The notes under the pieces: generated by a model
The model's database searches: none
The model's input: the letters and a program-made list of their open reading frames with translations, nothing else
Told to the model about the DNA's origin: nothing
NCBI GenBank assembly: GCA_044892525.1
Contig: CM097885.1
Span: 22,322,001-22,386,000, forward strand
Reading direction: 5' to 3'
DNA from: Schmidtea polychroa
Lineage: Eukaryota
DNA: 64,000 nt
Translations under genes and position numbers: made by a program
In this document: positions 9,001 through 12,000 of the stretch, piece after piece
Layout of the letters: each line of letters opens with the position of its first letter
Position numbering within the stretch: position 1 is the stretch's first letter

Positions 9001-12000
9001 TGACTCTTTTCACTTCTGGATTTGCTAATGCTAACATGTTGGCTAATAGGTCATTTATCCATCGTGTCCCTTGTTCTCGGACGCTTGTCTTCACTTTCAC
9101 TTGTTTTACTAATGCACTTAGTTTATCCATTTTAGTTTTTACCTGCTCCATTTGCGCCTGAACTTTGGATTTTGGTTCGATCTCTGCTTTATCTGTTTTT
9201 GGTCTTCCTCTTGTTCGTCGATCCATAGCTGTTCCGGTTTCTTTCCGTTTTGGCGGATTGTAAGTTGTATCTTTTGACGTGGTCGCTCCTGGATCTACTC
9301 TCCAGTTGCTCCATTCATCGGTTGTGGTTACATCTTTATTGGCACCTCTTTCCACGTTATCTAAATCCGTCTCGACTTCCGTCGTTTCCACTGGTTGTCT
9401 CTGCGCGCATACAAATCCATCTAAATCATCAGTTGTCGGTTCACCTTCGTCGATAAATAGGTCTCCTGATTGCGATGCTCTCATAATCTCGCCTGCTTCT
9501 ACTATCTCTTGTAATTCATCCAGTATTTCGTCTTCTCCCGTTGTTTCGATCGTCACTTCACTAACCGCATTTGGAACTTCTGGTGTGTCCAAACTTCCTG
9601 GTTGTTGGGTGGATGATTTTTGCTTTATCTCTCTTCTCCTTAGCTCTCTACCTGCAATTTTACTCACCGTTAATCTGTTCACAATTTCTCCTTGGAGTGG
9701 TGTCACACCGATCTCAATATCGTCGTCTAATGATCGTCCCTCGTGTTGTAAGTGGAATGGGAGTTCATAAGGTATTCTCTTTTTAACTTCTCTGACTTTA
9801 GCTGTCGTATAGAATTCCTTTTCCATTGGTTCACAATCTGGCATGAATATTTTTAATTGATATTTCTCAGGTGAGTTTTCGGCCCACTCTTGTTGTTTCC
9901 ATTTCCGGATGATTTCACCAAATTGTTCAGGGTACCATACGTATACCCGTCGATATTCTTCAATCGCTTTAACGATCTTTCGTAGATTTTGAATCCTTTT
10001 GCATGATTCGGCTATCCATTTTGCTAGTTCTACCACCGCTCGTCGACGATTTTTCGCCCCGTTTTGTAATATCTCCATCAACTCCTTACATTTTTGTGCT
10101 TCCAACAATGTTGCTGCTTCCTCCTCATCTGCATCTGCGTCTATTGGTAGATGTCCTGAATCAGACACTCTTCTCCTCATCATACAGATTCTCGGTTGAT
10201 TTTCTGGTATGTTCAGTCGTTGGTTCATTTCTTGTTCTGTTTCAACTTCTACTCTGATCTGGATAGCATTGTTTTTCACAAATTTTGACTGCTCATTCTC
10301 AATGTAACTTAGACGTATTAATTTAGGTGTCCCAGAAGCGATATTTTCTGATGTTGTTGGTCGTTGATAGCAGGCGCTCCTTGGATCTGGTTTCCATGTT
10401 TCTTTATGCATGTTAAGGCTATCTTTCAATGGTTCGATTGCTATCGTCACTTTTCTGCTAAACGGCCATGGTACCTTGTCGTCATAATTTCCTTTGCAGA
10501 TGGCGAAGAATGCCGACACATAATTTCCTTTACCTATCCCGTCTCCGTTCGGGTATATTCGCAATTTCATCTTGTACTCACCTAATCCTGAGTAGAACGG
10601 TGGACTTACTAATCGTGTGATTTTCTCTTCCTTTGCTGATTTTATCTTTTCCATCCAATTCTCAATTTTCCACGTGAATGGTGCTAACCTTACCGGTTCT
10701 CGTATCTCCTCATCTTCTCCTGATGGTAATTCATTTTGGGATTCTTGTGGTAATATATCCTGGTAAGTATCGATCGGTTTCTCTCTTACCCATACTGCTG
10801 CGATCTCTTCGGGTATATTATCTATCCAATTTGGTTCCAACTTTTGCTGCTCCCAATTCCATCGAGCTTCACTTTCGATCCACACTTTTTTCCATGGTAT
10901 CAGTTTGCAATCTTCGTCATTGAAGGCTGCTAGTTTTAGTTTATCATCCTTTAGCCAATGGTTATAAATATCTATTATTCGATCCATCTTTGCCCTCATT
11001 CCCCATTGGAATCTTTTAATTTGTTGCTCGGTTTTCGTGGCGTTTTTGTGCCCACCAGATGGTTCATCCATCGCGATTATATTGATGACGGCTCCATCTT
11101 CCCAGATTCCTAGTTCGTAAATTACAGTTCGGTCTCCTCTTTCTAGCATGTGCCGGTTGTACATTATTATCACATCTTCGATCATTCCATCCTCACTATT
11201 TTCTCGAGCTTTTTGGATGATCTCTTGATCTATGATTTGCACTAACTCGTCAACTTGGCAATCGGGATTAACTTCTATTATTTGTTTCTCTTCATTTGGC
11301 AACTTCACCTTTATTTTTATCGTTTCATGCTCGCATTTGGTTCTCTCGTATTCTCCGTATTTAGATATCAATTCTGTCGCTCGTTTGTCTTCGAATCTCA
11401 TAATTTCCGTGTCTCGTACGTCTTTAACAAATTGTTTCATTAGTTGTGGCCATCTTTCTCTCAATCTATTAATGTATTTCCTTGTCTGATCGATAGCTTG
11501 TTTGACTAAGATTATTTGGTTTTCTTTCATTATTTTTCGTTCGATCTTTTCCAATTCTGGTTCTACTTCATTGTTAAACACTTGTTGGATTTTCTTGAAC
11601 ATCTCTGCTACCGAGTCGTCATCCCTGGTTTTCTCTAAGGTTAAGATGTTAGTTTCGTTTGGCCATATCATCGCATCTACCAAATGTATGCCTATTTTAA
11701 CTTTGTAACCATCGACATATAATTGTTTATTTTTATGGCTCGTTCCCATTTTTTCCTGTACCCAGTTGTACAGTTCATCGGTATTTGTTCCTTTTAATTC
11801 GATAGTCTGTATCTGAATCTCGGGGTGTTGAATGCTTACTTGATATTGATCTGGGCCTGCTTCCTTTAGTTTCTCTTTATATTTTGTTGCTAAATCTTTC
11901 CATGCTGCCGTTATTATACCTCCTTCACACTGGTATACTTGAGTTATAAGTTTTAAGCATTTTCTGTATGTTAACTCGTTGATGTAGCTCTCATTTCGCT

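Follow-up and report, generated by a model that had tools for sequence, protein, structure and literature searches.

A TRAF-C domain inside the polyprotein of a giant gypsy retrotransposon, very probably of the Burro type, in Schmidtea polychroa

We found that the TRAF-C (MATH) domain at positions 10244..10678 on the minus strand (–) of a 64,000-nucleotide stretch of Schmidtea polychroa DNA (contig CM097885.1, positions 22,322,001 to 22,386,000; the window) forms aa 1080–1224 of one long polyprotein and stands there without a TRAF-N coiled coil, RING or zinc fingers. Judging from the order of its domains, the polyprotein belongs to an envelope-bearing gypsy retrotransposon that is very probably of the Burro type, and we propose that TRAF-C is a cargo module of this giant element. 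The explanation that we favor as a whole, namely that the domain was captured from the host as cargo, would be released by the element's protease and may serve as a survival adaptor, is given a probability of roughly one half.

The TRAF-C domain and the frame that contains it

The first-pass annotation had described a TRAF MATH domain without adjoining RING or zinc fingers, and our analysis confirmed both points and the exact boundaries of the domain. The Pfam family MATH_2 (PF22486) matched with an E-value of 4.7e-29 over profile positions 2–136 of 136, indicating a complete domain, and PF21355 was the second match (E 5.7e-26). The closest relatives in the PDB were TRAF3 (6.9e-32), followed by TRAF5 and TRAF2, with a far weaker match to TRAF6 (4.5e-16), as for a domain of the TRAF2/3/5 type; TRAFs were also among the structures returned by Foldseek for a low-confidence model of the region. 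Neither Pfam nor a CxxC scan of the whole frame detected a RING or TRAF zinc finger beside the domain, and every CxxC pair belonged either to one of the three knuckles of Gag or to the zinc site of integrase. The annotation had omitted two things: the domain is embedded in a polyprotein 4,638 aa or more in length, and TRAF-N is missing as well. Adding 74 upstream residues did not extend the five TRAF3 alignments shown, which again started at TRAF-C. The linker immediately in front of the domain is proline-rich (six prolines in 53 residues) and scored low in a crude scan for heptads. Thus, the element domain and canonical TRAF1–6 have the TRAF-C β-sandwich in common, whereas the TRAF-N coiled coil that directly precedes it in canonical TRAFs, and the N-terminal RING and zinc fingers of TRAF2–6, are missing in the element.

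This architecture bears on the suggestion, also made in the annotation, that the domain resembles N-terminally truncated TRAFs acting as dominant negatives. Classical dominant-negative TRAF truncations retain the TRAF-N coiled coil. In the element, TRAF-N is missing along with the RING and zinc fingers, as judged from the TRAF3 alignments and the proline-rich linker, and the analogy is therefore weakened. The coiled coil trimerises TRAFs, and receptors are described as being bound as trimers (PMC6125299, PMC7905041).

The frame containing the domain (2..13915, –) is free of stops, runs off the window edge, and has a Gag-cargo-Env-Pol-cargo organization, with the domains in the order Gag, TRAF-C, class III envelope, protease, reverse transcriptase, RNase H, integrase and ankyrin. 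Gag (12926..13813, –) comprises a capsid-like domain (PF03732, 4.3e-07; PF19259, 1.1e-06) and three CCHC knuckles at aa 268, 287 and 315. In frame between gag and pol lies a class III (mononegavirus/gB-like) fusion glycoprotein (6728..8548, –; PF24664, 8.1e-68, and 9.2e-25 for its N-terminal part alone), with hydrophobic segments at both ends; hydropathy identified the C-terminal segment, and the other was recognized by inspection of the sequence. The pol part consists of an aspartic protease with a DTG motif seen in frame (5834..6109, –; PF13975, 1.4e-04, below the cut-off), reverse transcriptase and RNase H (4118..5170, –; PF00078, 6.6e-35, and PF17917, 2.4e-38) and the zinc-binding and core domains of integrase (3278..3793, –; PF17921, 1.7e-20, and PF00665, 3.6e-12), behind which are ankyrin repeats (2039..2302, –; PF12796, 6.8e-08). 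A cysteine-rich C-terminal region (2–1378, –) between hydrophobic segments at aa ~4190 and ~4573 had no convincing match in Pfam and might be another membrane or surface protein.

Since the domain is embedded in the polyprotein frame, a stand-alone truncated TRAF gene was ruled out. We also considered that a host TRAF gene might have been joined to a retrotransposon by an assembly error or a one-off insertion, but nothing speaks for this, and it is refuted, for practical purposes, by the published layout and by the record of a sister element: the 4,638 codons contain no stop, the independent record matches over 864 aa, in the domain as well as in the sequence around it, the architecture has been published (PMC6431247), and the TRAF bins were covered by contigs in four of four public sequencing runs, with many diverged variants. 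For example, 29,476 diverged contigs lay on the element in run X1. The ratios of TRAF to RT bin depth in three runs (0.70, 0.90 and 0.55) are not copy numbers; in the fourth run (X12, with another organism label), the TRAF bins were about 100-fold or more below the RT bins. Among the 40 of 1,561 variant places shown, 20 were listed in frame, of which 17 were third codon positions and none lay inside TRAF-C. One contig of run X8 joins positions 10657 and 11520 and so lacks the U2 region (see below) and the beginning of TRAF-C; it is probably a deleted copy. Word-index protein searches with aa 1040–1800 returned nothing against long proteins and a single unrelated TRAF against shorter ones, and a metagenome scan gave 78 pattern matches, of which 0 were confirmed.

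Origin of the domain and its binding groove

Of the 3,333 proteins that a full-library search with TRAF-C yielded at E ≤ 0.001, the best 150 were examined. Among the matches listed, a fragment of the sister element (P0004) aligned over 864 aa, from one flank through TRAF-C to the other, at 49% identity, and the next highest identity was that of Dugesia japonica TRAF2-like A (45.6%). From 144 near-complete domains, 41 were chosen for a careful tree, and 103, including long-branch multi-domain rows, were left out. In this unrooted tree, whose bootstrap had not settled, a branch with support of 99/94 separated the two element domains and seven TRAFs (three named triclad, four unnamed) from the 32 others. 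The matching branch in a quick tree of all 144 rows, likewise unrooted, had an SH-aLRT value of 92, with 18 further rows, mostly long multi-domain ones, on the element side. The nearest host TRAF-C sequences were those of TRAF2-like proteins from triclads (ADF47429.1 of Dugesia japonica; T1DBK6 and T1DF65 of Dendrocoelum lacteum), which have signature residues of the groove region in common with the element domain. The TRAF-C domains of ADF47429.1 and T1DBK6 are 42–46% identical to it, but these two proteins, the ones scanned for further domains, are stand-alone and carry TRAF zinc fingers (T1DBK6 also a RING), in contrast to the lone TRAF-C of the element.

The window's TRAF-C and D. japonica TRAF2-like A also have the same S-A-C-Y form of the serine-triad region, and of the 142 other rows only 12 have C at the third position, among them the three named triclad proteins. 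Because the domain groups with triclad TRAFs and has these signature residues in common with them, it was probably captured from a TRAF2/3-like gene of the planarian host lineage. The capture is probably old, since the base composition of TRAF-C (GC 0.398) equals that of the rest of the frame (0.38–0.43). Accordingly, the proposed phylogeny with host TRAFs placed the element domains with triclad proteins, and the earlier description of a "captured" domain held for its TRAF2/3/5 type and triclad grouping, although with an unrooted tree the capture itself is rated as probable. TRAF/MATH genes have been reported to be expanded in S. mediterranea (PMC6109357).

The annotation had also pointed to conservation of the receptor-binding groove. 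Ten TRAF2 residues contacting Px(Q/E)E ligands in the groove of TRAF1/2/3/5 are listed by Park 2018 (PMC6125299). We mapped nine of the ten through the TRAF3 alignment (L432 was unmapped), the assignment of the TRAF2 numbers to motifs being in part provisional. In the window copy, four of the nine were identical (R393, Y395, F410 and S453), two were aromatic swaps and three were changed; in the sister element, three were identical and six changed. The R/Y/D polar pocket was kept in both elements, and hot spots 1 and 2 drifted. The groove of the window copy appears host-like, because its seemingly degenerate S-A-C-Y form is also found in a D. japonica protein. However, TRAF-C was no better conserved between the two elements (69/142, 48.6%) than its flanks (422/834, 50.6%), and together with the remodelled groove of the sister element, this gives no sign of a fixed host ligand. 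The groove is partly conserved in the window copy and remodelled in its sister. The polyprotein itself contained canonical TRAF-binding motifs at about the expected number (PxQxT/S, 1 versus 1.2 expected; PxQxxD, 0), and an excess of [PSAT]x[QE]E (23 versus 13.8 expected) is attributed to acidic spacers.

The equal identity of TRAF-C and flanks, together with the drift of hot spots 1 and 2, might mean that the domain is a passenger or structural spacer, kept only to maintain an open, folded frame to Env and Pol and having no signalling role now; the run X8 contig whose joint removes the start of TRAF-C also fits this idea. We consider it unlikely. A domain of full fold length and its R/Y/D polar pocket have survived ~50% divergence in both elements, and MATH_TRAF_C occurs as a separate accessory ORF in a Dugesia tigrina element (PMC6431247), where it is thus no spacer.

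Candidate processing sites, accompanying domains and leader region

The motif [RKQH]-I-[NC]-hydrophobic-hydrophobic was observed eight times in the frame, compared with 0.33 expected and with 0 of 2000 shuffles, although the resulting p-value is optimistic, because the pattern was chosen after the sequence had been seen. Copies lie at the borders between the protease and dUTPase-like regions and between RNase H and integrase, places at which cleavage by a retroelement protease would be expected, and at aa 1243 (10178..10189, –), 19 residues after TRAF-C, where the sister element has a variant at the aligned place. Upstream of TRAF-C, a looser form of the motif at aa 944 (11075..11086, –) and a stricter one at aa 559 (12230–12241, –) are both present in the sister element. 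If these putative sites are cleaved, the element's own protease is predicted to free a TRAF-C product that ends near aa 1244; its length would be ~300 aa with a start at aa ~945 or ~685 aa with one at aa ~560. Since the domain precedes the first hydrophobic segment of the envelope, the product would be cytosolic. Free TRAF-C would presumably bind peptides weakly and probably as a monomer.

Such a product may include one or two ubiquitin-like domains, for which the candidates are weak. U1 (11606..11845, –) shows a strand-strand-helix pattern in a low-confidence model and has no Pfam support. U2 (11066..11320, –) matched four β-grasp Pfam families below the cut-off (E 0.006–0.15) and nothing in the PDB by sequence, and is 61% identical in the sister element. 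The section on Burro in the 2019 review (PMC6431247) does not mention ubiquitin-like domains at the U1 and U2 positions. A third weak candidate, the ubiquitin/SUMO-like U3 (9656..9883, –), lies between TRAF-C and a Bcl-2-like region, as published for Burro (PMC6431247); it fell into ESM Atlas ubiquitin/Rad60-SLD clusters (0.88, a lead only), had no match in Pfam or the PDB, and showed no similarity to U2 when the two were compared. The weak Bcl-2-like candidate (8606..9118, –), also at the position published for Burro, contains a BH2-like stretch (8639–8731); of its 37 PDB matches, 35 were variants of one protein, Bcl-xL, at sub-threshold E-values of 0.6–1.7, whereas Pfam, fold model and ESM Atlas were uninformative. 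Modelled alone, this stretch reached a pLDDT of 39, and a fold model from a two-row alignment reached 37, which provides no evidence for the weak domains. A word-index protein search with the SUMO-like and Bcl-2-like stretches returned nothing. Finally, a candidate dUTPase-like spacer (5426..5773, –), again weak, had a dUTPase as its sole PDB match at E ≤ 10 (E 1.5).

Upstream of gag, an accessory ORF of 160 aa (16595..17077, –) has an IAP-type RING at its end (PF13920, 4.9e-12) and no BIR. In the PDB, the best 9 of its 15 matches were cIAP1/2 and XIAP, and none of the 15 was a TRAF, which rules out a split TRAF in which this ORF would be the lost TRAF RING. No BIR domain was detected within positions 1–22600 by Pfam or by a BIR-like motif scan in six frames, the 3΄ part of the element lying outside the window; this copy is possibly from a family without BIR. 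Further upstream, 16 of 18 letters at 17777..17794 (–) match a pattern that we take to be that of a tRNA-Pro primer-binding site; the pattern matched once in the window and in 0 of 100 shuffles. Next to it lies a candidate 5΄ LTR of ~3.3 kb with TGTA...TACA ends (17799..21081, –), the start of which is provisional, as the 3΄ LTR lies beyond the window. Because the primer-binding site and candidate LTR lie upstream of the RING ORF, this ORF belongs to the element, in which it is flanked by the primer-binding site and gag. Two short ORFs in the candidate LTR (18201–18680 and 18881–19246, –) are GC richer than their surroundings and had no match in Pfam. The leader between the RING ORF and gag also has short direct repeats of 53 and 58 bp, at 15007–15190 and 15425–15770. 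On 13900–22600, Rfam gave a single chance match, and no tRNA genes were detected in the window.

In the rest of the window, a Polinton/adintovirus-like cluster (22574–34027) encodes an rve+chromo integrase and an A32-type ATPase and contains a TBP-like ORF (30549–30986; PF00352, 1.6e-15); capsid-like ORFs and a long ORF resembling DNA polymerase were recognized there by eye, without Pfam support. A 103-aa ORF at 33110–33421 (–) gave a weak Bcl-2-family signal (PF00452, E 0.063), and all six of its PDB matches were A1/Bfl-1 (best E 0.058); an apoptosis regulator may thus be encoded by another mobile element close by as well, one unrelated to the gypsy element. An uninterrupted ORF of 857 aa at 39167–41740 (–) is of the hAT transposase type (PF14291, PF05699), with more hAT-like fragments seen by eye near 34.7, 42.9, 45.0 and 46.4 kb. 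A 297-bp inverted repeat (59176–59772; 99% complementary, 3 bases between the arms) is either a fold-back element or an artefact of the assembly.

Relation to known elements and possible function

Giant retrotransposons of planarians with a lone MATH_TRAF_C domain have been described before: the 2019 review by Arkhipova & Yushenova (PMC6431247) credits the domain to Jurka 2007 and, citing Grohme 2018, reports it in Burro-2 to -4. The review describes the Burro/GYPSM1 ORF of 4,873 aa as containing Gag with three knuckles, MATH_TRAF_C, SUMO-like and BCL2-like domains and env, followed by PR, dUTPase-like, RT, RH, IN, BIR and ankyrin. Our assignment is based on this published domain order, and the element may belong to one of Burro1-4 or to another family. 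Burro/GYPSM1 and the present element both have a single giant ORF (4,873 aa in the element described and about 4,900–5,100 aa in the class; at least 4,638 aa here, open at the window edge), and they agree in the Gag with three CCHC knuckles, the MATH_TRAF_C between Gag and env, the mononegavirus-like env placed in frame between the gag and pol parts, the PR-RT-RH-IN order and the ankyrin repeats. At the places of the Burro SUMO-like, BCL2-like and dUTPase-like domains, the element has sub-threshold family matches (0.88; E 0.6–1.7; E 1.5). Burro elements have paired LTRs, ~30 kb and high copy number, compared with a primer-binding site, a candidate 5΄ LTR and many diverged contigs here. They also carry a BIR, reported for Burro1-4 and not mentioned in the review's account of the D. 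tigrina element (PMC6431247), whereas here, with the 3΄ part of the element beyond the window, 1–22600 contained the IAP-type RING of the upstream ORF and no BIR. The D. tigrina element is of the same class and also carries MATH_TRAF_C, but in an upstream accessory ORF and with a Gag of two knuckles, compared with the polyprotein and three knuckles here (PMC6431247). GAG-ENV-POL errantiviruses with an HSV/gB-type Env, reported from Platyhelminthes, Nematoda and Bryozoa, likewise are Ty3/gypsy elements with a class III Env between gag and pol (Chary & Hayashi 2026, PMC13524379), but TRAF, Bcl and ankyrin cargo has 0 occurrences in the main text of that paper, and the element here carries cargo. 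In the main texts of the literature searched, we found no functional study of Burro TRAF-C; Grohme 2018 and Lee 2026 may cover it. This copy is at most a further member of a known element type.

As for function, the annotation had suggested an innate-immune antagonist. The corresponding reading is that released TRAF-C acts as a decoy, blocking host TRAFs at receptor or adaptor tails and thereby damping antiviral signalling against the element's particles. The equivalents of R393, Y395, F410 and S453 in the window copy are identical and two more positions stay aromatic, the triad matches that of a host planarian TRAF, planarian TRAF2/3/5 homologues are reported to be induced through TBK1 (PMC13563047), and the element carries an envelope. 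However, with no TRAF-N there is no evident trimer or avidity, the groove of the sister element is remodelled, the RING of the element is of the IAP type, and the only functional study on the cargo of a Burro element indicates a role in apoptosis control (as cited in PMC13465017). We therefore regard the decoy as improbable. The planarian literature points no less towards cell survival than towards immunity.

The annotation had further raised the possibility that TRAF-C acts jointly with the ankyrin module and the RING ORF. Both do lie in the same element, but the RING is IAP-type, and the ankyrin repeats, ~2,650 residues away behind the integrase, would be a separate product from TRAF-C. A related scheme is a two-part ubiquitin ligase, in which TRAF-C, freed by the protease with a ubiquitin-like cassette, would pick substrates while the BIR-less IAP-type RING recruits E2 in trans, and divergence of the groove between families would change the targets. 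TRAF-C and the RING ORF do occur in one element, the RING ORF lacks BIR substrate-binding domains, and ubiquitin-like candidates flank TRAF-C. In mammals, the TRAF2–cIAP contact uses the TRAF coiled coil, which is missing in the element. Mammalian TRAF2 and cIAPs are known to cooperate, but their contact also uses cIAP BIR1 (PMC7905041), no BIR was found here in 1–22600, and we consider this ligase very unlikely.

We tentatively prefer a survival role, although the odds of this particular step are slightly below even. In this proposal, TRAF-C would be a cytosolic adaptor that biases host TRAF/IAP signalling towards survival of element-expressing cells, as part of a survival and ubiquitin toolkit of the element. 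The proposal is based on the IAP-type RING, the candidate Bcl-2-like and ubiquitin-like company and the planarian literature: the BIR+RING protein of Burro1 (B-IAP) is reported to protect stem cells from apoptosis (Lee et al. 2026, as cited in PMC13465017), and RNAi of two S. mediterranea TRAFs led to more cell death (PMC7586133). However, since host TRAFs are pro-survival, a TRAF-C decoy could equally harm the cell, which argues against the survival reading. Burro1 RNAi did not rescue a smedwi-2 knock-down (PMC8532177), a result that does not address the TRAF-C domain.

Our analysis extends the published picture of this element type in several points: TRAF-C is likely of triclad origin and lacks a trimerising stalk, its groove varies from one element family to another, the ends of a putative released product can be predicted, and the element includes an ORF for a RING without BIR. 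With B-IAP reported as a stem-cell protector, the TRAF-C module would be an obvious probe for a wider survival or immune-control kit.
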